Shown here: positions 1,840-20,000 of the stretch, piece after piece
Position numbering within the stretch: position 1 is the stretch's first letter
How the letters are laid out: every line of letters starts with the position of its first letter
Origin: an uncultured virus (IMG/VR IMGVR_UViG_3300044627_003959)
Lineage: Duplodnaviria; Heunggongvirae; Uroviricota; Caudoviricetes
Direction: 5' to 3' (one strand)
Length of the DNA: 20,000 nt
Virus record (IMG/VR): IMGVR_UViG_3300044627_003959
Position numbers and translations under genes: made by a program
The notes under the pieces: model-generated
What the model was told of the DNA's origin: nothing
Database searches by the model: none
The model's input: the letters and a program-made list of their open reading frames with translations, nothing else

Positions 1840-4464
1840 ATGGATCCTAGTTTATACGCAGCATTAAGCGGTTTAGGCCCTCAGACAGGCGGATTTAATC
1901 CTACGCCTGCGGAGAGTATGTTTGCTAAGTCGCGCGAAAGATCTTCGCAGGGGCTTATGGACTACGCGCTCTACACCGCGCCGCAGGTTAGAAACTCGAG
2001 CATGCTTACAGCTACCGCTTTAGCTGGAGATCCGGCGAAGGCGCACGAAATGCTCAAGAACACCGCACAGGGGCAATTCATAAAGGATACCTACGGGGTG
2101 GCTATGCAATCAGGTTTAATGCCTGGGGGTAACCCTATGAATCTTGCTTCAAGCGTGCAGCAAATGATTTCTAGCTCGGGCTTTAAAGTTGGAGGTATGA
2201 TGGGTGGCGGTGCCGCCTTCGGCCATGGAGGCATTACCGACCAACTGAGCCGACAAGTATTCGACCAGATTAAAGGTAACTTTTTTAGTCCTACATCAGG
2301 CCTAAGTAAAAATAACGCTAAAGGTATGGATATGTCTCAATTCGGAGACATGGTCGGCCAGTTAACATCCCGGGGAGCCTTTGCTGGTATGGAGGCTTTT
2401 ACTACTACCTCTGTTGGGGGTAAAATGGACTTTAAGGTCGTGCCTGAGAAGATGAAGCAAATTAATAAAAAATTGGAGGACTACGCAGGCATGGTTAAAG
2501 ATGCTACCTCCATATTTGGAAAATTACCCGTGGGGCAGATAACTGAAATCGCCGAAAGATTAACAGGGATGAGCATGGGCGAGCTTGGGGGTATAAAAGC
2601 AGCCAAGGACAAAATGGCTAATATTAAAGCTCACGCTTTAGCTTACGGTGCAAATCCTGAAAAGGTAGCAGCCAATATAATGAACGCGACGGATTCTGTG
2701 CAGCAGCAGTTATTTGCTGGCGGAGTACAAAAGAACGAACAAGCTGCTAGTGCTTTTAATTTAGCAGGTGCATCTTCCGCTTACGGCAGACAGGCGGCTA
2801 TTATAGCCGAGAAGGCAACATTCGCAGGTATGCAAGTAGCTCATGCGAGCGATGTAAATGCTAATCAGTTAGCCGCTAAAGGCGTGTACACCACACGTTT
2901 CAATGAGTCAGATGTCTCTAAAGCATACCAGGAAGGTCACATCGCTATTGGTAACGAATCTAGCTTTAAAAGGGTAGACGCGGCGCTTTATGAAATGTCC
3001 CAGGAAAATTCCAGAATCAAAGGACCAGCCAGAGAAAAAATATTGGAGCTTACTAAAAGAATGGGCTCCGCCAGCGTCTCAGAACAGGCTACTATAAGCA
3101 AACAAATTTCAGATATAGCAAAAAATAGTGGAGCTGATTTATCAGCCATTATTCGAAATATGGATGAATCAGAAATTAAAGGAGGTACAAGTCAGGAATT
3201 AAGTAATTTTAAACAAGATGTTATACACGGGGCGACTAAATCTCGTTTTGCTGCAGGTGCCTTACAACAAGCGCAGCGTATAGGCTTGGGTGGTGGGTTG
3301 CTTAATAGAGGATCAAAAAGTCTAAAAGGGCTTACTTCTTTAGTATCTAAATTTAATGCTGGTACTTTAGACCAGATAGCCGGGGCTATAGATGAAAAAG
3401 GAAATGTTGATGCGGAGAAATTAGATCAGATATATAAGACCACTCCCTCGCTAAAAAATATTATGACGGCTGAGCAGCTGAGAGCTGAAGTCGGAGATAT
3501 AGCCGCAGGACAAAAAGGCGACGTCGGTCAAAATATGCGCGATGTCTTTAGCCGTATAAGAACAACTAACAGAGGTAAGATGACGCAAAATGAGCAAGAC
3601 ACAAGAGAAGCAGCTGTGCGCGCAGTACAGGCTACATTAGCCGACGCTTCCCTAGGCGGACCTATTGATTCAGAATCTTTTGGTTCTGAATTAGTTCGCG
3701 GGTTTTTAGGCGGAGGTAAAATTGAAGATAAAAATATAACTCAGGCCTTAATGAACGATAAGAATGCGACTGGTGCTATATTAAAAATCAAAGAAGATAA
3801 ATCTGGCTTAAACGTCAGCGGAAAAGATATAGCCAATCTTGAAAAAACTTTAGGAGCTGAGAATCTAAAGGGCTTATACGCTAGCCTGGGTATTAAACAA
3901 GGTGACGCCGCAGGGCTAGCTTCAGCTTTAGGTACGCCTCAGGGGTATCAGGCCCTGGAAAAGAATATGGGGGGAGGTTTAATGCAAGCGGACGCAGAGG
4001 GTAACCTTCGTGTATTCGGTGAGGACGCCGTTTCAGGTAAACGAGGTGAATTAGAACAGGAAGCGATGATGCGTGAAGCTAAGACTTTACTTGGTCCTGA
4101 GGCTAGTTTTAAATCTACTGGCGATTCCGGAAAGGATTTAATTAACTTTAACAAGCAAATGAAGGAAGGCTTAACAAGCGATAAGCTGTTAGGTCTAGCT
4201 ACAGTATCCAAAGAAGGTAAATATGAAAATAAAGAATTCGATGCTTTAGCCCGCCAATTTAAAAATGATCCTGACTTAGATAAGCATCTAAAACAAAAAA
4301 GTGATGAGTTAAAGGATCAAGGCAAAAAGGAAGAAGCAGGACAAATCAAAGAATTACGCGATGCACTTAAATATAGAAATACGCAAGAAGGAGGCGGACA
4401 ATATCTTGGAATATTACAGATTATGAGTGATAGTATGTCCAGCTTAGCTCTTTATAAACAATAA
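1840..4464 (+). CDS. putative tail tape measure protein, 874 aa
   Basis: Long, rich in Ala/Gly/Gln/Lys/Met, no Cys seen, helical character. It sits between a chaperone-like pair and baseplate-like genes. Confidence 0.65.
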   Translation: MDPSLYAALSGLGPQTGGFNPTPAESMFAKSRERSSQGLMDYALYTAPQVRNSSMLTATALAGDPAKAHEMLKNTAQGQFIKDTYGVAMQSGLMPGGNPMNLASSVQQMISSSGFKVGGMMGGGAAFGHGGITDQLSRQVFDQIKGNFFSPTSGLSKNNAKGMDMSQFGDMVGQLTSRGAFAGMEAFTTTSVGGKMDFKVVPEKMKQINKKLEDYAGMVKDATSIFGKLPVGQITEIAERLTGMSMGELGGIKAAKDKMANIKAHALAYGANPEKVAANIMNATDSVQQQLFAGGVQKNEQAASAFNLAGASSAYGRQAAIIAEKATFAGMQVAHASDVNANQLAAKGVYTTRFNESDVSKAYQEGHIAIGNESSFKRVDAALYEMSQENSRIKGPAREKILELTKRMGSASVSEQATISKQISDIAKNSGADLSAIIRNMDESEIKGGTSQELSNFKQDVIHGATKSRFAAGALQQAQRIGLGGGLLNRGSKSLKGLTSLVSKFNAGTLDQIAGAIDEKGNVDAEKLDQIYKTTPSLKNIMTAEQLRAEVGDIAAGQKGDVGQNMRDVFSRIRTTNRGKMTQNEQDTREAAVRAVQATLADASLGGPIDSESFGSELVRGFLGGGKIEDKNITQALMNDKNATGAILKIKEDKSGLNVSGKDIANLEKTLGAENLKGLYASLGIKQGDAAGLASALGTPQGYQALEKNMGGGLMQADAEGNLRVFGEDAVSGKRGELEQEAMMREAKTLLGPEASFKSTGDSGKDLINFNKQMKEGLTSDKLLGLATVSKEGKYENKEFDALARQFKNDPDLDKHLKQKSDELKDQGKKEEAGQIKELRDALKYRNTQEGGGQYLGILQIMSDSMSSLALYKQ

Positions 4465-4935: not shown

Positions 4936-5694
4936 ATGCGTGACGCTGTATTACATTTAATATCAAATAAATCTAATGGGTTCAATGTCCCGTGCTTTCC
5001 CGTTTATAGTTCTTTCACTCCTTATACGGCTACAGCACAGGAAACCGTACTGCGAGACAAGCTATTTATTAACAGTAGTAATTATCATTTAATAAATAGT
5101 TTGCTAGCTGTTTATTCTTTTATAGATATTTTATCTGAATTTAGGGAAACATCCCGCACCTTTAACTTTTCAGATTTGCCTACTGGTGAAGTCAGCATTG
5201 TTAACGCTACTTACGGTAATACAGATACAGTAAACTTTAATATATTAAACATACCAAATTCTTTTCCATCGCCTAATTATTTTAATTGGGAAATAAAGTA
5301 TCAAGATGACGCGTTTATTGTTCTACACTGCTGCGATACTGTTTCCACTATTCCGTACACACTGACGTCGGTTACACAGAATAGTACTACCTATAGATTG
5401 CTCACAGCTGATTGGCCTGTTGTGACTGGGATAAAAGGAGGTTTTATATTAGACCCCGCATTAAGCTGGAGTTACGGTAATAGCATAACTTTAACTGTAC
5501 CTCCTGTTGTTTTCCCATACGAGCAAGCTATAAAACTTGTAGACAAACTAGCGGAAACGGCGCATGTACTTAACGGTTCTGGCTTAGCTAGAAATTATTA
5601 TAATGCACAATCATATATTGAGAAATACGCGTTGCTTATGCTTGCTATAGCTAGACCCGATTTGAGAAATCCTAAAATAGTAACCGTTTGTTAA
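4936..5694 (+). CDS. hypothetical protein (probably structural), 252 aa
   Basis: Full ORF with 2-nt and 1-nt gaps to its neighbours. Central N/T/S/Y-rich beta region with helical ends. No recognised family. Confidence 0.7.
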   Translation: MRDAVLHLISNKSNGFNVPCFPVYSSFTPYTATAQETVLRDKLFINSSNYHLINSLLAVYSFIDILSEFRETSRTFNFSDLPTGEVSIVNATYGNTDTVNFNILNIPNSFPSPNYFNWEIKYQDDAFIVLHCCDTVSTIPYTLTSVTQNSTTYRLLTADWPVVTGIKGGFILDPALSWSYGNSITLTVPPVVFPYEQAIKLVDKLAETAHVLNGSGLARNYYNAQSYIEKYALLMLAIARPDLRNPKIVTVC

Positions 5695-5695
5695 T

Positions 5696-7123
5696 ATGGC
5701 GAATAAAGCTAATACATTAGAAGTTCGTAGCCCTTCAGTCTCTGTTCAGGAAGAAAAAACAGATAGCGTCGAACTCACCTGGACGCTTCCCGTGGACTCT
5801 TTTTTGGCTGGCGCACCTGCCGCTAAATACTCAGCGCACCCGGCTGGAAGTAACAAAGTTTTCTCCCCTAATGCCGCAGAGTTGATAAAAAAAATTGCAG
5901 ACGCTCAAAACACTATGTTTCAGCCTGCTCAAGTCAAGACGATAACTGTACGTGATGGTAGCGAGCAAACACTGGAATTCACAGGGTATGATGGAGGTCC
6001 TTCGCATTCTGTGATGTTTGGAAGAGTAAACAATGGTAAAACTATAGTCCATAGATGCTCTAAACTATTTTTTATAAATACCAGTATTTACAGCCTACCT
6101 CCTGATAAATTTGCAGTTTTTGCTGATGAAGTTGCAAGCGCTAAAAATCCTACCGAGATGATAAAAACAGTTTTAAAAAACTGTTTAGATGAATTTCAAA
6201 ACACAGTAGACAATGATTTCTCATTAGTAGGTAAGGCAAAAGAAATTAAAACCAGAATACATAATAAAAATGTAAAGGTTATTAATGATGAATGGTTTCC
6301 TATTTTAGACGCCAGCACTGACTCGGGTTTAGACAGTTTTTCAGAAGTAGTAAGCGATATTTATTCAGTCAGACAAAAGGTATTTGATTCTATTTACCAA
6401 GTTTATGTAAACAGCAACACTGACTTCAGCTCAACTATTTCTCAATTTTGCAGTATGTTTCAAATGGTTTTTGTTCCGTCTACAGACGGCAAGAGCCCAG
6501 GTAAGTTCATATCTTACAGAAAAATGTTGAGCGATGCCGAAGACAAGGATGTTCTAATCTCCAGTCTATCTATGTCCCCGGGCTCTTCGAGATTCTTAAC
6601 TGTTAGTGGTGTTATTATGCAGGGCGGGCCTGGAGATAATTTCTTTGGGGTTCTTTCCAGCGGGTCTGGTATAGTCAGCTGGCCGGAGAGCATACCTGAA
6701 AATGGGGAATTAATTCCGATGCGTGTTCCTTCTTGGATACCTGCGGAAGAGTTTCCTGAGGAAGTTACAGCTGACGGTACGACTCTAGATTTAAATGAAA
6801 ACGCTAAAAATGTCGAAGCGCAGGCAGGTAAAATAAAAACCGACTGCGAACTTGTGGCTAAGCTTATAAAAGAAATAGCGCGCTTAGCTTATAATAACGC
6901 AGCCCTAGGTACAGCCTCAGCCACTATAACCACAGTTCTTGACGTCAGTTGGGAAATAGGTAAAAGATACGCAGTGAAACAAGCTGGCGGTGATTTATTA
7001 TTTTCAGGCTTTTTGAAAGGATTAAGTCACCGTGTTAGTTCTAGCGTGGACAGCCCAGAAGCAGTTACTCAGCTTTCTTTCTCGCATGTCGAGACAAACG
7101 GTTTTACATTACCTAATAAATAA
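5696..7123 (+). CDS. putative baseplate hub protein (T4 gp27 / Mu gp44 / P2 gpD-like), 475 aa
   Basis: Size and position fit. The C-terminus ATITTVLDVSWEIGKRYAV...LFSGFLKGLSHRVSS...VTQLSFSHV follows the typical hub C-terminal barrel pattern (G-x-hydrophobic...V/L-x-H...T-x-L). Confidence 0.55.
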   Translation: MANKANTLEVRSPSVSVQEEKTDSVELTWTLPVDSFLAGAPAAKYSAHPAGSNKVFSPNAAELIKKIADAQNTMFQPAQVKTITVRDGSEQTLEFTGYDGGPSHSVMFGRVNNGKTIVHRCSKLFFINTSIYSLPPDKFAVFADEVASAKNPTEMIKTVLKNCLDEFQNTVDNDFSLVGKAKEIKTRIHNKNVKVINDEWFPILDASTDSGLDSFSEVVSDIYSVRQKVFDSIYQVYVNSNTDFSSTISQFCSMFQMVFVPSTDGKSPGKFISYRKMLSDAEDKDVLISSLSMSPGSSRFLTVSGVIMQGGPGDNFFGVLSSGSGIVSWPESIPENGELIPMRVPSWIPAEEFPEEVTADGTTLDLNENAKNVEAQAGKIKTDCELVAKLIKEIARLAYNNAALGTASATITTVLDVSWEIGKRYAVKQAGGDLLFSGFLKGLSHRVSSSVDSPEAVTQLSFSHVETNGFTLPNK

Positions 7124-10100
7124 TGGACAGAGAACAACAAAGACAACTGAGAAGAAGTACTGAGACTTCATTTTCTTGTACAGCAGAGTATTCTCTGCCT
7201 GTGGTAGAGAATGTTTCTCCGCGCCCATCCGCCAGTTGTGATCCGCCTAATGAACAACCGGAGCCACTTCCATTTGTTGAGTTGGTACCGTGTCCTCCTC
7301 TGCCTGTTCCTGCGGTTAATTTACCTGATGGGTTAGGTATTAAATCTGATCCTACTGTTGCTTACTGTCCTTCCACAGCAGGCTACAGCGTTACCGGAAC
7401 TACGGCTGTATCTCTTTCGGCGGGCGCTATTAGCCAAAACGTAATATTTACTCTACTTACGGATATTACAGATAATCAATTGAATTATTTGTATGAAGCT
7501 GTGCCTGGTTCTAGCGCAGCTATAGTCAGTGCGGCATTGAGCGGAGCTACTACTTCAGTGGTGGCCTTAACGCATCTTAATTATGATCAATCAGAAGAGC
7601 TGATAATCAATATTCAGACTACAAAGTTTACTGTGGATAGTTTAGCCGTAGAGCGGGCTAGAAATTTATTGTTATGCCAAGTAGAAAATACAGTGCAGAA
7701 CGCGGCGTGTCCTACGGGCTCTTACACCGGATCTTCTGCTTTAGTCCCACCAAGCTTTGAGTACACACCTACTGCCTCCGTGGCTGCTAGTTCAGTGTTA
7801 GTTACTTTTGACCTAACGCCTACATCGGGAGGTCAGACTGCATTTAATATAATTAATATACCCAGTCTTACGGCGGCAGCGGCGCAAGCTAATATTATAG
7901 CCCTGTCACAGGCTGAAAGTCAGTTGCGTTGTGTATACGCTAATTCCACAACTACTGCAGCTTGTTGTACATCAGAAGCGCCGCATAATAATTTAGGTTA
8001 CACCTATTGTGTTCCGGCTACAGGTCCATCTATAACAGGTTCCGCGACTGCGGTAGGTTTTTACACGGTGGAACTAAATACGATTTTTTCTTCTGTTGGC
8101 GCAGCGGAAGTTAATCAGCTCGCGGCTGTTCTCGCTCTTAATTCTCTAAACTGCTATTTCGCTAGTGACCCCGTTACAGTGGCATGCACAGCTTACGCCC
8201 CTCCATATGCTTACGCTGCCAATTCTACAACATCCTTCAGTCTCCCGGCGGGCACAATCATACTTAATGATTTAGTCTCAAGTGTTACTGCTGCCACAGA
8301 GCAAGCTACTTCTATAGCTGTAGCTTCTTTAAATTGTTTTTGGAGTAACGACCCGCAAAGTTCCACTTGTCCTAAATCCGGAACATTCACGGCTATAAAT
8401 AGCCAGCAATATGATTTACCTGCCAGCACTGCAAATTCTATCAGCTACACAGCCGGTATAGAAGGTGACATCGTTATTTCTTATGAAAGTAAAACAGCAG
8501 CAAACGAGCAAGCTATATCGTTAGCCCAGTCACAACTATCTTGTATTTATTGTAGCGACGAGGTACCACCGACTTGTACTGGTGGTGTAAATGAAACCTT
8601 GGGCGCTACTGCGAATTTGGTTTGTAGCTCTTTGGCTATTGTTGCTCAAAATACAGCTCTTTCTCTAGGTAGTATTTTATTATCTACGTCAGGAGGACAA
8701 CTGAATTGTTGTTACGGTAATGACGCAGTAAATAATAATATCTACTGCGGAACTGGAGCATACAGAAATCCAGGCTCGGCCTTTACTAGTATTGACAATT
8801 TCTTCATACCGGAAAATGTAATCACTGTCTGTTTTAGTACAACAGGCGCTGCTCCGGATCCTACATTATTTCAATATTCCAACCTCTACGCGGGTACTAC
8901 ACCACAAGCAGCAGCTTGTTTAGATACGACGCCATGCTCTGTCACATCAGGCTCGGCGACAGCGCTACCTGCGCTCTGGGCCTCGCAAACAGACTTGTTC
9001 TCGGCTATTACTTACGGCGCTACATTCTATTCAAATACAGCGCTAGCCCCGTATAGTTTCGATCCTTCTTATCCTTATATTGTAGATAGGTCGTTTACGT
9101 ATAGAAGCTATAGAACGGTGACTGGAGGTACTGGGTATACAGAAGGACTGACAGCTTATTCTTGCAGTGATTTCGCGGCATACACTTTCAGAGGGGCCAC
9201 ACTAGGAAATTACCCGGGGGCGTCTGGTACTCTGGCTTTACAAGATATTTTCTGTAGCTCCTCAGGTCCTACGGCTGGCTTGATAACTCTTTATTCAGAT
9301 ACGCTTGTACCATTTTCTTCCAGCAACACAAGCGCATGGTACACAGATCCGTGCGGGCTGACCGCTTTTAACCCAGTCGTTGACTCTTCTACAGCCGCGC
9401 AATATTACGCTGGAATAATTCAAGATGGCATAGCTGCGTATATCGCATTCTCTACTTCCGGAAGCAACACAGCCGAGTACCAGGGTTTGTACAATTTAGC
9501 CACTTGCGCTACTGGACCTTGGCCGGACACTAATCCATCTCCTACTTCGAGTGGTTCGTCTTATATAAGCTATACACCACCATCAGGCACAAATGATTAT
9601 AAGGTACAGGCCAATGATATCGCGCAAAATATTGTTAACAACTTCGTAAAGTGTTATTACTTAAATGATTTTTTAATAGGAAAGTCGTGTAGTATAGGCG
9701 AAACATTAATCCAGCTAGGAAGCGTGGCGGCTGGTGAAGTTGTAAGTATGGTGTCCAAAGCAGATGCGAATAAAATTGCGCAATCGATAGCAGATTCTAG
9801 AACTATATGCTTTACAGAAGAGCAACTTAAGCAAGGTTGTGCTGGTACGACGATCAGCTCCCCGGCGCTCTTGCCTATATTAGGTAAAAATTTAGAATTA
9901 AAATTTGAGCAGGCCGCGTGCTCTTTCACTACAAGTCTTACTTTGGAAGGAAGCTTTAATAAAACATCTATTCAAAACTTGCCTCCAGCAGGAGTGAAGC
10001 AAATAACATTGTGCGGAACTGCAGGAACTCAGAACATACTTATACCTTACTGGGATGAGGGTGTAGTTGACGAAACCGCAGCGATTACTATTTTAGCAAA

Positions 10101-10158
10101 TAGCGCGGGAACTGATTTCCCTGGAGGATCCACTTTCGACGCAGTAACAGACAACTAA
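7123..10158 (+). CDS. large cysteine-rich repeat protein (DUF5977-like repeats), probable virion fibre/appendage, 1011 aa
   Basis: About 34 Cys by manual count; T/S/A-rich; no signal peptide. About eight degenerate units of type 'S..AN..A...A...L.C.Y.N......C', e.g. SYESKTAANEQAISLAQSQLSCIYCSD and AGEVVSMVSKADANKIAQSIADSRTIC. Confidence 0.65.
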   Translation: MDREQQRQLRRSTETSFSCTAEYSLPVVENVSPRPSASCDPPNEQPEPLPFVELVPCPPLPVPAVNLPDGLGIKSDPTVAYCPSTAGYSVTGTTAVSLSAGAISQNVIFTLLTDITDNQLNYLYEAVPGSSAAIVSAALSGATTSVVALTHLNYDQSEELIINIQTTKFTVDSLAVERARNLLLCQVENTVQNAACPTGSYTGSSALVPPSFEYTPTASVAASSVLVTFDLTPTSGGQTAFNIINIPSLTAAAAQANIIALSQAESQLRCVYANSTTTAACCTSEAPHNNLGYTYCVPATGPSITGSATAVGFYTVELNTIFSSVGAAEVNQLAAVLALNSLNCYFASDPVTVACTAYAPPYAYAANSTTSFSLPAGTIILNDLVSSVTAATEQATSIAVASLNCFWSNDPQSSTCPKSGTFTAINSQQYDLPASTANSISYTAGIEGDIVISYESKTAANEQAISLAQSQLSCIYCSDEVPPTCTGGVNETLGATANLVCSSLAIVAQNTALSLGSILLSTSGGQLNCCYGNDAVNNNIYCGTGAYRNPGSAFTSIDNFFIPENVITVCFSTTGAAPDPTLFQYSNLYAGTTPQAAACLDTTPCSVTSGSATALPALWASQTDLFSAITYGATFYSNTALAPYSFDPSYPYIVDRSFTYRSYRTVTGGTGYTEGLTAYSCSDFAAYTFRGATLGNYPGASGTLALQDIFCSSSGPTAGLITLYSDTLVPFSSSNTSAWYTDPCGLTAFNPVVDSSTAAQYYAGIIQDGIAAYIAFSTSGSNTAEYQGLYNLATCATGPWPDTNPSPTSSGSSYISYTPPSGTNDYKVQANDIAQNIVNNFVKCYYLNDFLIGKSCSIGETLIQLGSVAAGEVVSMVSKADANKIAQSIADSRTICFTEEQLKQGCAGTTISSPALLPILGKNLELKFEQAACSFTTSLTLEGSFNKTSIQNLPPAGVKQITLCGTAGTQNILIPYWDEGVVDETAAITILANSAGTDFPGGSTFDAVTDN

Positions 10159-10171
10159 ACATATAAAATTA

Positions 10172-10570
10172 ATGAGCAATATTGAGATATACATACTTGG
10201 TTCCGTCGCCGTAAGCAGCATGATGATGTGGTGGTTTAATACTAATTTACCCATCCATATTGTGCAGATAATTAAATGGTTGGGGTACAAGAAGAACGAT
10301 AAAAACTTCTGGTATTCTGAAACGCCTTGTCATCTATGGACTGATGCAGATCTTAGTGCTTGGAAAATGCAAAGTCTACCTGCATGGCTGGACGAACTAA
10401 CCTCATGCCCTGGGTGTCTTAGCATGCACTTCAGTTTTTGGTTCTCCTTATTTTTAAATTTAGTAACATGGCATGGTTACGAATCTTTTGTTATATTTCT
10501 GCTTGCATGGTTGGGCTGGCCGTATATTGCTAATGTTGCTTTAGCCTTTCTTAAAAAAATACAACACTAG
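10172..10570 (+). CDS. membrane protein with CxxC motif (DUF1360-like), 132 aa
   Basis: Hydrophobic N-terminal segment, then LDELTSCPGCLSMHFSFW followed by two hydrophobic helices. This matches my recollection of the DUF1360 signature 'ELL.CP.C.S.W'. Confidence 0.6.
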   Translation: MSNIEIYILGSVAVSSMMMWWFNTNLPIHIVQIIKWLGYKKNDKNFWYSETPCHLWTDADLSAWKMQSLPAWLDELTSCPGCLSMHFSFWFSLFLNLVTWHGYESFVIFLLAWLGWPYIANVALAFLKKIQH

Positions 10571-10572
10571 TT

Positions 10573-11091
10573 ATGAGCGAAACTGAAAACAATAACCCAC
10601 CGAGTGCCCCGCCTGTTAATTTAAGAAGTATTTATCTGTATAAGATTATACAGGGGCATAAGATTAAGTGGCAGATAAAAGTAAACAATGAAATGGTCAT
10701 CATTGATGAAGGTCCTGCCAATGTTGCGCAATTTAACAATATCTTGGCCGGGAAAGTAGAACCCCCGACAAATGTAGCCGGTGAAGTAACAAAAACTTAT
10801 TCTCTTACACCTACCGACAACTATAAGAAAGTTCTCGATGCGCGTGGTATTAAATATAATACTACAGCAAACGGGCAAATCATGGTGCAGGAAGTTCCAT
10901 ACAAAGAAAAAATGATTATGCAGTTTTTCGACATGGATGCTCCGCCTCCAACTGGAGACGGCGTTGACGCGCTGCGCGCTAAGTATAGACAAGAAATAGA
11001 AGAAGCCGGAGGTACAGCCGGTTGTACTGGCTGTAAGTTGAATTCCATTCAGAGAAAATTCAGAGAACTACTCAAAGATAAATTCAATTAA
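10573..11091 (+). CDS. hypothetical protein with C-terminal CxxC helix motif, 172 aa
   Basis: The C-terminus is AGCTGCKLNSIQRKFRELLK. These are the only two Cys in the protein. Confidence 0.7.
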   Translation: MSETENNNPPSAPPVNLRSIYLYKIIQGHKIKWQIKVNNEMVIIDEGPANVAQFNNILAGKVEPPTNVAGEVTKTYSLTPTDNYKKVLDARGIKYNTTANGQIMVQEVPYKEKMIMQFFDMDAPPPTGDGVDALRAKYRQEIEEAGGTAGCTGCKLNSIQRKFRELLKDKFN

Positions 11092-11288
11092 TGTCCGCTT
11101 CTTATGATCATCTCGTAGCAGGTATAGCAGCTTACCCTGACTTAGAACGTAGGTTGGCGGCTGAGATTTCATTCAATAAAAGCACTACAAAGAGCGGCTG
11201 TGGAAACTGCAAGACACAGCAAGTTATTCGTAAATATAAATCTCTTGTAGATTTGAGACGTAAAAAAGAACCTGGGCGCAGGTATTAA
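11091..11288 (+). CDS. small basic CxxC protein, 65 aa
   Basis: TAATG overlap with the upstream gene. The motif SGCGNCKTQQVIRKYKSLV resembles the C-terminus of the preceding protein. Confidence 0.7.
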   Translation: MSASYDHLVAGIAAYPDLERRLAAEISFNKSTTKSGCGNCKTQQVIRKYKSLVDLRRKKEPGRRY

Positions 11289-11327: not shown

Positions 11328-12044
11328 ATGACTAGCGCAAAAATTTCAAATGTCGACACTGCGTATAATAGTTATCTAGCGGATCCTACCCCTGATAATC
11401 TATTTAGTGTAGTTGAACAGTTGAATCCCGTTATTAGCTACAGCTTATCCACTATCAATGCTACCACGGACAATTTAATTAAAAATAAAGCTAAAGTATT
11501 TGCAGCTGAGGCTATTAAAAAATTTAATCCTACTAGCGGGGCGTCTTTGCCTACTTGGGTCAGCGGTCAATTAATGCAGTTAAAGCGGTTTAGGCGCGAT
11601 GTCAATCAGCCCATAAAAGTACCTGAGCGCACGCAGCTTGATGCTTATACGCTGGCTCGCGCAGAACAGGAGTTTATAGACAAGAATAACCGGGAACCGG
11701 ATGTAGAGGAACTCTCCGACTTTTCAAAGATTCCAAGGAAGAGAATCGAAAAAATAAGACGCACCTTTAGGGCTATGCCGTCACAAGGTGCTATGGGTGA
11801 GGGTGCTTCTCAGTCAGAAACTGACTTTGGAACTGAGGCCCTGGATTACATATACAAGGATGCGGATAAAGTGGATAGAAAAATTATAGAGATGAAGCTG
11901 GGCTACGGCGGACGCTATGAGCCTATGGCTCCGAATAAGATATCCACAATGCTTGGGTTATCTCCCAGCCAACTGACCCGCAGATCCATAAAGCTTTCCT
12001 TGAAGTTACAAGAGATAGAAAAAAACCTACAAAGCATTCAATAA
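11328..12044 (+). CDS. RNA polymerase sigma-70 family sigma factor (group 3, SigB/SigF/FliA-like architecture), 238 aa
   Basis: Region 2-like AAEAIKKFNPTSGASLPTWVSGQL, linker QPIKVPER, region 3-like NREPDVEELSDFSKIPRKRIEKI, region 4 HTH-like DRKIIEMKLGYGG...NKISTMLGLSPSQLTRR. Confidence 0.85.
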   Translation: MTSAKISNVDTAYNSYLADPTPDNLFSVVEQLNPVISYSLSTINATTDNLIKNKAKVFAAEAIKKFNPTSGASLPTWVSGQLMQLKRFRRDVNQPIKVPERTQLDAYTLARAEQEFIDKNNREPDVEELSDFSKIPRKRIEKIRRTFRAMPSQGAMGEGASQSETDFGTEALDYIYKDADKVDRKIIEMKLGYGGRYEPMAPNKISTMLGLSPSQLTRRSIKLSLKLQEIEKNLQSIQ

Positions 12045-16393: not shown

Positions 16394-18682
<2,289 letters not shown>

Positions 18683-19052: not shown

Positions 19053-20000
19053 ATGAGTATAAGATACGGACAAAAAGTTTTTAATTTAGCGGATAAGCAA
19101 ATATCTACTGCTTTTACTGGATTTAACCGAGCCATAAAGCAGATGCCACCCTCTGCCACTAGTGTTGTTACTTCATATGATAGACCAACAGATTATGTTA
19201 CCATGCCCTCAATTACAAGTAGCGAGCAAAAGGTCGCGATGCTTGTTTTTATATCCAATGATTCGTCTAATTTTTTGTCATTCACATGTGCGGGCAACTA
19301 TACTGTTGATTGGGGAGACGGCACAACAGAAAATATTTCGTCCGGGGCAGCGGCGTATCACACTTATGATTATTCGGCTTTTGACCCGACTAACACAACC
19401 CTGAATTCAGAAGGTTTTAAGCAGGCCGTAGTTGTTATTACTCCTCAAGGAGGAGCTAATTTAACATCTTTAAATTTTCAAACAAGACACTCGTCCGCAG
19501 CCACTGCGAACGTTTATTCGCAACCTATCGCAGAAATGTATATTTCTGCGCCAAACCTTACATCTTTAACTATAGGCTCTGCGGGCCCCACTAGCGTTGT
19601 TTATCCAAGATATGTAAAATATATCAATTTAATTAATACGGGCTCGCTAACGAGTCTAGCCAATTTATTTTATAGTTTATATAACTTAATATTTTTTGAT
19701 GTTGGTACAACAGCAGCAATTACGAGCACAGCATCCATGTGCGCTGCTTGTTATAAATTACAGGGGTTCGCATTTAGTAATTTAGTTAATTTTTCCGCTT
19801 TGACTGCAACGAATAGTATGTTTAGCTCTTGCTATAGTTTGGTGGCACCACCGCTGTTCAATACGGCGAACGTTACTAATATGAACAATATGTTTGCTAG
19901 CTGTTACAGCTTAAGACAGGTGCCACTATTTAACACTGCGAACGTTACTAATATGTCAGCAATGTTCACTACGTGTCCCAGTTTGACTGCTGTTCCGTTG
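19053..20000 (+). CDS. 3'-truncated PKD-like + BspA/DUF285-type leucine-rich repeat protein (at least 316 aa), putative adhesin/receptor-binding protein
   Basis: Not in the ORF track because it has no stop in the window. Manual translation from ATG 19053 is open to the end: MSIRYGQKVF...NYTVDWGDGTTENISSGAAAYHTYDY...MFSSCYSLVAPPLFNTANVTNMNNMFASCYSLRQVPLFNTANVTNMSAMFTTCPSLTAVPL. It has the WGDG PKD motif and 23-aa 'FNT.NVTNM..MF..C.SL..VP' repeats. Confidence 0.85.
   Translation, partial: MSIRYGQKVFNLADKQISTAFTGFNRAIKQMPPSATSVVTSYDRPTDYVTMPSITSSEQKVAMLVFISNDSSNFLSFTCAGNYTVDWGDGTTENISSGAAAYHTYDYSAFDPTNTTLNSEGFKQAVVVITPQGGANLTSLNFQTRHSSAATANVYSQPIAEMYISAPNLTSLTIGSAGPTSVVYPRYVKYINLINTGSLTSLANLFYSLYNLIFFDVGTTAAITSTASMCAACYKLQGFAFSNLVNFSALTATNSMFSSCYSLVAPPLFNTANVTNMNNMFASCYSLRQVPLFNTANVTNMSAMFTTCPSLTAVPL

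Follow-up and report, generated by a model that had tools for sequence, protein, structure and literature searches.

Three CxxC proteins encoded beside a cysteine-rich fibre-like protein form a conserved module, and a candidate thiol-disulfide relay, in an uncultured lineage of large phages

In a 20,000-nucleotide (nt) stretch of DNA from an uncultured Caudoviricetes virus (IMG/VR record IMGVR_UViG_3300044627_003959; the whole stretch is hereafter called the window) we have analysed a block of four genes, in which the open reading frame (ORF) for a large cysteine-rich protein, ORF8, is followed by ORF9, ORF10 and ORF11, encoding three small proteins that each carry a CxxC motif, the first of them a membrane protein. 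We conclude that ORF9, ORF10 and ORF11 constitute one conserved module of an uncultured lineage of large phages, with related records of up to 200 kb. Among the functions considered for this module, a cytoplasm-facing thiol-disulfide relay that would act on ORF8 ranks first, and we put it forward tentatively, as the leading candidate rather than as a probable answer. The features on which the argument turns are as follows (lengths in amino acids, aa).

ORF8, 7123..10158, + strand: 1011-aa Ala/Ser/Thr-rich, fibre-like protein with 34 Cys; the proposed substrate
ORF9, 10172..10570, + strand: 132-aa membrane protein with three hydrophobic helices
ORF9 CPGC codons, 10406..10417, + strand: both Cys unchanged in 147/147 aligned sequences
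ORF10, 10573..11091, + strand: 172-aa soluble protein
ORF10 CTGC codons, 11023..11034, + strand: C154 kept in 14/14 and C151 in 13/14 relatives
ORF11, 11091..11288, + strand: 65-aa protein, a stand-alone helix-CxxC-basic helix module
ORF11 CGNC codons, 11199..11210, + strand: C37 and C40 kept in 9/9 relatives
Sigma-like gene, 11328..12044, + strand: 238-aa protein without Cys; the steady downstream neighbour of the trio

The four genes of the block are co-directional and follow one another with gaps of 13, 2 and -1 nt, an arrangement reported in the initial annotation of this DNA and confirmed here from the ORFs and the nucleotide sequence; all window ORFs of more than 100 aa lie on the + strand and are tightly packed. 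ORF8 has 34 Cys (3.36%) and ORF9 three, including those of a CPGC motif at residue 79, while a Cys count bore out the earlier statement that the CxxC motifs of ORF10 (CTGC at residue 151) and ORF11 (CGNC at residue 37) hold the only two Cys of each protein. The remaining 16 ORFs of the window contain 0-1.9% Cys and a single further CxxC among all of them. When the sequences were read by eye, no hydrophobic, signal-like segment was seen at the N-terminus of any block protein, in agreement with the earlier claim that ORF8 lacks a signal peptide. Between positions 5000 and 13000, neither promoter-like nor terminator-like sites were in excess over shuffled sequences (23 against 17.3 +/- 4.1 and 8 against 7.0 +/- 2.7, respectively), and the block therefore looks like a single operon.

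Lack of cysteine conservation had been named beforehand as an observation that would speak against a redox role, and conservation proved to be strong in all four proteins. Relatives of ORF9 are found in 33 clusters at 55-82% identity in a large protein database, and a profile search of 1.84 billion representatives recovered 158 proteins at E<=1e-3, 63 of them at E<=1e-10, from which 149 were fetched. When 146 of these were aligned with the window protein, to give 147 sequences in all, only two columns proved invariant, those of C79 and C82. They form part of a signature at the start of helix 2, C79-P-G-C82-x3-H86, in which the histidine four residues past the second Cys is present in 132/147 sequences and is replaced mostly by W or Q (11 of the 15 lacking His); in 99/147 the first Cys is followed by Pro, which makes CPxC the commonest form. 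Three matches were left out of the alignment: P0192, which is repetitive and has no CxxC, P0204, a 26-aa fragment, and P0193, a 95-aa match to the profile without CxxC that is either a fragment or possibly a true member lacking the motif. The cysteines of the soluble partners are similarly constant. C151 and C154 of ORF10 are invariant in 12 close relatives, and in the wider set of 14 the only departure is C151 in the second ORF10-like gene of locus L015; C37 and C40 of ORF11 persist in relatives down to 29% identity. In ORF8, 34/34 Cys are kept in those close homologues that have the position (13 sequences including the window; mean column identity 61%), and 13 remain invariant when two homologues at 22% and 27% identity are added. 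Because they are so conserved, the CxxC motifs are more than chance occurrences, and all four sets of cysteines are under strong selection.

The distribution of charge along ORF9 points to the side of the membrane on which its CxxC lies. Averaged over the 147 sequences, loop 1 has 6.13 Lys plus Arg residues and the C-terminus 1.66, as against 0.17 at the N-terminus and 0.12 in the turn that joins transmembrane segments 2 and 3. Since loop 1 and the C-terminus are the parts rich in Lys and Arg, the positive-inside rule, together with the fusions described below, makes it most likely that both of them, and with loop 1 the CxxC, are cytoplasmic. A cytoplasmic C-terminus agrees with the fusion of this end of ORF9 to a domain whose free form lacks a signal peptide. 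With loop 1 inside and ORF10 and ORF11 lacking signal peptides, all three CxxC motifs would meet in the cytoplasm.

Natural fusions link the membrane protein to its soluble partner: 7/149 fetched representatives are ORF9-ORF10 fusions (231-328 aa), all with both CxxC motifs, and an eighth, of 281 aa, is encoded in L015. An AlphaFold2 (AF2) model of the fused homologue P0079, built from a 41-row alignment, has a mean predicted local distance difference test (pLDDT) score of 85.2; each of the two domains exceeds 90, and the linker joining them is disordered. Its ORF9 part is modelled as three long helices (residues 3-32, 96-119 and 123-148) and some short ones, with CPGC capping helix 96-119; the helix begins one residue after the first Cys, in keeping with the earlier reading of CPGC as lying at the start of a hydrophobic helix. 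Its ORF10 part is predicted to fold as helix-strand-strand-helix followed by two helices, the last of which (284-301) is capped by the CxxC. Searched against BFVD, the fused model returned nothing at E<=0.001.

In ORF10 itself, the N-terminal domain is followed by a small alpha/beta domain (RGIKY...), and a helix-GG-CxxC-basic helix module makes up the C-terminal part. A PDB profile search with ORF10 gave nothing usable, and the ESM Atlas yielded no usable match to it. In both ORF10 and ORF11 the CxxC is located 18-25 residues from the C-terminus, between two helices, and the tail of ORF11 is very basic. When the two profiles were compared with hhalign, ORF11 aligned to the last 45 columns of ORF10 with 96.2% probability (E 2.5e-9), and ORF11 is therefore a free copy of the helix-GG-CxxC-basic helix module; by this profile comparison it is a paralog of the C-terminal module of ORF10. 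Distant ORF10 relatives and all of the fusions have an additional C-x5-7-C pair about 20 residues before the CxxC, which was lost in the window's clade. Two further occurrences of the module were noted. In L015 (103-1865) four helix-CxxC-helix modules stand in a row ahead of a sigma-like gene, in the order 281-aa fusion, 80-aa piece, 160-aa ORF10-like protein without the first Cys of its CxxC, and ORF11. In BFVD, the C-terminal CxxC module of the fused model is matched in superposition by A0A6J7X5S6, a 66-aa protein from an uncultured Caudovirales phage (probability 0.99, template-modelling (TM) score by target 0.65, 23% identity, E 0.23), which is probably an ORF11-type protein within this viral structure library.

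The putative substrate was initially described as having about 34 regularly spaced Cys. The number is correct, and a regular pattern is present in eight helix-C-x9-11-C units, each consisting of an Ala-rich helix that closes with L-x-C and, after a further 9-11 residues, a second C; the remaining Cys are irregularly spaced. An AF2 model of ORF8 residues 150-560, with a mean pLDDT of 62, shows the units as strands leading into a helix, with both Cys in the strand region beyond it; no relative of this model was found in the PDB (best E 2.8). The family DUF5977 (PF19404; DUF, domain of unknown function) matches ORF8 at 11.1 bits (E 0.65), below our criterion of >25 bits, and two of its homologues, P0049 and P0051, at 27.7 and 26.2 bits (E 4.1e-6 and 1.2e-5), with the homologue from locus L005 at 21.5 bits (E 3.5e-4); ORF8 may accordingly be described as having distant DUF5977-like repeats.

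Gene order around the module was compared by script in 13 loci. The order that is kept reads 475-aa protein, Cys-rich protein, ORF9, ORF10, ORF11, sigma-like gene and five further conserved tail genes, and it is found in the window's clade (L003 and L009-L011, with L004, L008 and L017 in part), in L013 and L014, and in the high-GC pair L005/L018, of which L005 sits in a 200-kb record rated 98% complete. The Cys-rich protein of the syntenic loci has 653-2664 aa and 1.8-5.1% Cys. A Cys-rich protein (1.8-6.1% Cys) lies directly or closely upstream in 11/11 loci that have upstream DNA, so that the finding named in the initial annotation as fatal to its proposal, homologues of the trio in phages lacking a Cys-rich virion protein, was not encountered among them. 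These 11 loci lie on nine contigs, two of them near-identical, and because all but one locus are syntenic relatives the co-occurrence provides little independent evidence. The exception is L016, which is rearranged, with a 710-aa protein of 6.1% Cys followed by an ORF10-like and then an ORF9-like gene, and it is the only locus that adds co-occurrence evidence independent of synteny. A homologue of this 710-aa protein (E 2e-19) is encoded in L014 as its second Cys-rich protein (548 aa, 3.5% Cys). The two (L014 3805-5451 and L016 1430-3562) define a second Cys-rich family with shared motifs such as CWCKT and CCQT and no PHROG match; its gene separates ORF8 from ORF9 in L014 and immediately precedes the ORF10-ORF9 pair in L016. 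An extra gene of 194-206 aa likewise stands between the Cys-rich protein and ORF9 in L005 (9308-9928) and L018 (1174-1758), with 0-2 Cys and 30% mutual identity; none of the additional genes of L005, L014 and L016 had a match in PHROG scans.

Among cultured phages, neither blastn of the block nor tblastn of ORF8, ORF9, the sigma-like protein and the distant member P0102 gave a match, and IMG/VR yielded three related contigs only, each related record carrying one ORF9 copy; scans with other subfamilies or with the fusions returned nothing. A pattern match on a Pseudomonas contig (L019) was discarded as chance, its reading frame being full of stops. Neither thioredoxin nor glutaredoxin was matched in three related virus records, of which one is rated 98% complete, leaving the trio as the only set of candidate redox genes seen there.

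According to the relay model, ORF9 would reside in the inner membrane of the host, its CxxC(x3)H lying where helix 2 meets the cytoplasm, and ORF10 and its mini-paralog ORF11 would dock there through their own helix-capping CxxC modules. If the cysteines of the trio are redox-active and ORF8 is their substrate, reducing equivalents would pass from the 34 Cys of ORF8 to the trio and on to the membrane, presumably to quinone as the acceptor, and the helix-plus-hairpin units of ORF8 would be stapled by disulfides while the baseplate is being built inside the reducing cytoplasm. In its fullest form this would be the first phage oxidative-folding machinery, consisting of a cytoplasm-facing membrane thiol oxidase of the DUF1360 superfamily and helix-CxxC-helix carriers that staple a Cys-rich fibre before lysis, with a fold unrelated to those of DsbB, VKOR, Erv and thioredoxin; so specific a version is to be regarded as doubtful. 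The relay is supported by the conservation of the cysteines, the helix-capping position of the CxxC motifs, their predicted cytoplasmic side, the fusions of membrane and soluble parts, the Cys-rich neighbour, including that of L016, and the finding of no other redox gene.

The closest functional parallels are the membrane oxidases of known disulfide-forming pathways. DsbB with DsbA, and VKOR with thioredoxin, share with the trio a CxxC at the start of a membrane helix and a soluble CxxC partner that is sometimes fused to it, and a polar residue stands four positions past the second Cys in both ORF9 (His) and DsbB (Arg48). VKOR-thioredoxin fusions exist, and the ORF9-ORF10 fusions recall them; inverted forms of DsbB and VKOR, moreover, work in the cytoplasm. 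The differences are nevertheless considerable. DsbB and VKOR have four helices and two Cys pairs, whereas ORF9 has three helices, judged by the AF2 model and the family alignment, and one pair; the Cys pairs of DsbB face the periplasm, whereas the CxxC of ORF9 is, by its charge distribution, most likely cytoplasmic; and the partners of ORF9 are helical hairpins in the model rather than thioredoxin folds. At E<=0.01, ORF9 has no Pfam match to VKOR (PF07884) or DsbB (PF02600), nor do these occur among the families matched by 21 or by 147 of its relatives. A thioredoxin or glutaredoxin fold, in which a beta-alpha-beta core bears the CxxC behind its first strand and a cis-Pro loop comes later, was likewise not recovered for ORF10 and ORF11, which have no Pfam match and carry their CxxC between two helices near the C-terminus. 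A second parallel is the poxvirus E10R-A2.5L-G4L pathway, which also comprises three virus-encoded proteins with one redox-type Cys pair each and serves virion proteins assembled in the cytoplasm; A2.5L, like the partners of ORF9, is a small helical protein without a thioredoxin fold. Here the entry point would instead be a membrane protein, the sequences are unrelated and glutaredoxin or thioredoxin matches are absent. Erv1/ALR (PF04777) matched none of the 20 window ORFs and nothing in the three related records, in which the control matched nothing either.

Several observations weigh against a relay, and the proposal of the initial annotation, a membrane CxxC oxidase with soluble CxxC carriers, is supported only in part. 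ORF9, ORF10 and ORF11 matched no known thiol oxidoreductase in Pfam, PHROG or NCBIfam, and no flavin or quinone site was found in them, so that a cofactor site cannot be named. The fused P0079 model had no Foldseek match in the PDB at E<=0.001 (best E 0.62), a VKOR-like chain appearing only at rank 18 (E 2.9, TM 0.10), and in VIA-align the highest Z, 8.8, was reached with generic helical bundles, DsbB and VKOR being absent from the top 50 rows. To these are added the three helices and single Cys pair of ORF9, set out above, and the xx dipeptide, which varies widely in all three CxxC families and is in this respect unusual for redox-tuned CxxC enzymes. The extra C-x5-7-C of the distant ORF10 relatives and the fusions, which brings the former to four Cys, is a pattern typical of Cys4 zinc sites. 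Any disulfides of ORF8 could form spontaneously after lysis, outside the cell; the co-occurrence of the trio with Cys-rich proteins is largely inherited synteny; and the trio is linked just as constantly to the sigma-like gene.

It is possible instead, and ranks a close second, though we would not call it probable, that the single CxxC motifs pair between subunits in a shared site that binds Zn, an iron-sulfur (Fe-S) cluster or a soft metal, ORF9 with ORF10 or ORF11, or ORF10 with ORF11, clasping the soluble proteins to the membrane protein. Such a site could work like a zinc hook or clasp, or like a hand-off from metallochaperone to transporter, and could serve baseplate or fibre assembly at the membrane or some other task. 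In the Rad50 zinc hook, the CD4-Lck clasp and the CPxC-bridged Fe-S dimers of the Nbp35/Mrp type, two chains each give a single CxxC to one metal centre; these systems, unlike ORF9, are neither membrane-embedded nor linked to virion genes, and their likeness to the trio extends to the arrangement of motifs only. CPxC is a classical metal-knuckle form, and besides being the commonest form in ORF9 it is frequent in ORF10 relatives; C79, C82 and H86 could provide three ligands, distant ORF10 relatives have four Cys, the xx residues vary freely, and the fusions bring two CxxC motifs, or four to six Cys, into one chain. Yet the window's clade has lost the extra ORF10 pair while its CxxC stayed invariant, and the CxxC is therefore not merely completing an internal Cys4 site. 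Where H86 is missing, it is W or Q rather than Cys or Asp that replaces it in 11/15 sequences, three CxxC motifs are an odd number for pairwise Cys4 sites, and a shared metal site leaves the constant Cys-rich neighbour unexplained.

The steady presence of the sigma-like gene raises a third possibility, namely that ORF10 and/or ORF11 act as a thiol- or zinc-based anti-sigma factor or co-factor held at the membrane by ORF9, by which late transcription would be timed by redox or membrane state. The 238-aa protein resembles the sigma-70 family, on the basis of matches to phrog_351 (E 1.6e-7), to TIGR02980 SigB/F/G (E 5e-11, 42.7 bits against a cut-off of 234), to Sigma70_r3 (E 0.0035) and, with a seven-sequence profile, to RpoD chains in the PDB (E 1.1e-4). 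In the window its gene lies amid the tail/baseplate operon; it follows ORF11 in every locus that shows both, at a distance of 8-39 nt in the window and the five loci read (L003, L005, L013, L014 and L018), and between the window and L003 it is the most similar protein of the block (76% identity, compared with 69% for ORF9, 44% for ORF10 and 63% for ORF11). Zinc- and thiol-based anti-sigma factors of the RsrA-type ZAS class exist, and the very basic tail of ORF11 could fit such a role, but the sole basis for a regulatory link is adjacency, and we consider it improbable. ORF10 and ORF11 do not have the ZAS motif H-x3-C-x2-C, there being no His before their CxxC, and in ORF9 the order is reversed (C-x2-C-x3-H); no anti-sigma family was matched in the Pfam and NCBIfam searches; and in L016, where the ORF10-ORF9 pair has a Cys-rich neighbour, the 450 bases remaining on the contig after the ORF9-like gene lack a sigma-like gene. 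The sigma-like protein is moreover without Cys in 7/10 loci showing the gene and has one Cys in 3/10 (among them L013, with two L015 frames counted once). Whatever its role, it may or may not be part of the function of the trio.

Finally, a part for the trio in lysis or membrane perturbation, with ORF9 as a holin-like or superinfection-exclusion protein and ORF10 and ORF11 as accessories, would suit the small size and three hydrophobic helices of ORF9 and the match of 1/147 relatives to a holin PHROG (E 0.0021), but is very improbable given the invariant and probably cytoplasmic CxxC of ORF9, which is not known as a holin feature, the finding of no adjacent endolysin in Pfam and PHROG scans of the window, and the position of the module amid tail genes in every locus. 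The remaining probability falls to an explanation not yet thought of.

ORF9 had initially been labelled DUF1360-like, which holds as a remote kinship and not as a direct match of the window protein. DUF1360 (PF07098) and phrog_781 bring together small membrane proteins with a CxxC that occur in phages, Bacillus and actinobacteria, and ORF9 shares with them its small size, its several hydrophobic helices and the placing of a CxxC ahead of a helix. ORF9 itself was matched by none of the Pfam or PHROG models. Among its 147 aligned sequences, however, DUF1360 is found in 16 at E<=0.01 (best 9.8e-5; in a set of 21 relatives 1/21, at E 0.052) and phrog_781 in 40 at E<=0.01 (best 6.9e-8), and the ESM Atlas clusters closest to ORF9 (scores 0.93-0.91, 214-226 shared features) are viral and carry DUF1360 on 17-53% of their members. 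In the BFVD fold search a DUF1360 protein appeared only at rank 44 (E 0.86). These similarities suggest that ORF9 is a remote branch of the DUF1360/phrog_781 superfamily, distinguished by soluble CxxC partners, fusions and a CxxCx3H signature that are described here only for the ORF9 branch. As DUF1360 is itself a family without an assigned function, this kinship does not yet account for what ORF9 does. For one DUF1360 membrane protein, Aelin gp7 of the B1 mycobacteriophages, an association with the viral capsid or coat protein has been predicted (10.1101/2023.05.30.542743).

The question of how phages form disulfides is timely, as disulfide-linked particles are now being solved, including those of Q-beta and Milano (PMC13576161) and of Jabs (PMC13419713). 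The terms on disulfide formation for which we searched are absent from the text of the Milano paper (PMC10811340), and our literature search found no paper that names a phage enzyme for making disulfides in the reducing cytoplasm. The present block offers a three-gene candidate that can be tested in E. coli, with a natural (proposed) substrate encoded next to it, natural fusions and a target of six Cys for mutation. Were the relay to prove true, it would assign a function to DUF1360/phrog_781, a widespread DUF, and provide a new tool for the production of disulfide proteins in the cytoplasm; were the motifs to bind metal instead, the trio would still be a new membrane-tethering module, in a phage lineage without a cultured member.

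The surroundings of the block are less clearly assigned than the block itself. The initial annotation placed it between a 'hub' gene and 'gp25/J wedge' genes; the trio does lie there, but the sigma-like gene at 11328-12044 was left out of that description, and the 'hub' and 'wedge' labels could not be confirmed, resting as they do on gene order and one weak match (a 578-aa protein to phrog_6, E 0.0039), with PDB profile searches for the 'hub' and 'J-like' neighbours giving nothing. Upstream, positions 1840-4464 encode an 874-aa protein without any Cys that has homologues at 27-28% identity in L003 and L004 and, judged by position, is possibly the tape-measure protein. At the far end of the window, an ORF that is open at its 3' end (19053-20000) matches DUF285 (BspA-type repeat; E 6.6e-10) and contains 6 Cys and a CAAC motif. 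A 761-aa tail-fibre protein with collagen repeats (Pfam Collagen, E 4e-42) is encoded at 16397-18682, and the sole GC-rich kilobase of the window (56.5% at 17001-18000) falls within this gene.

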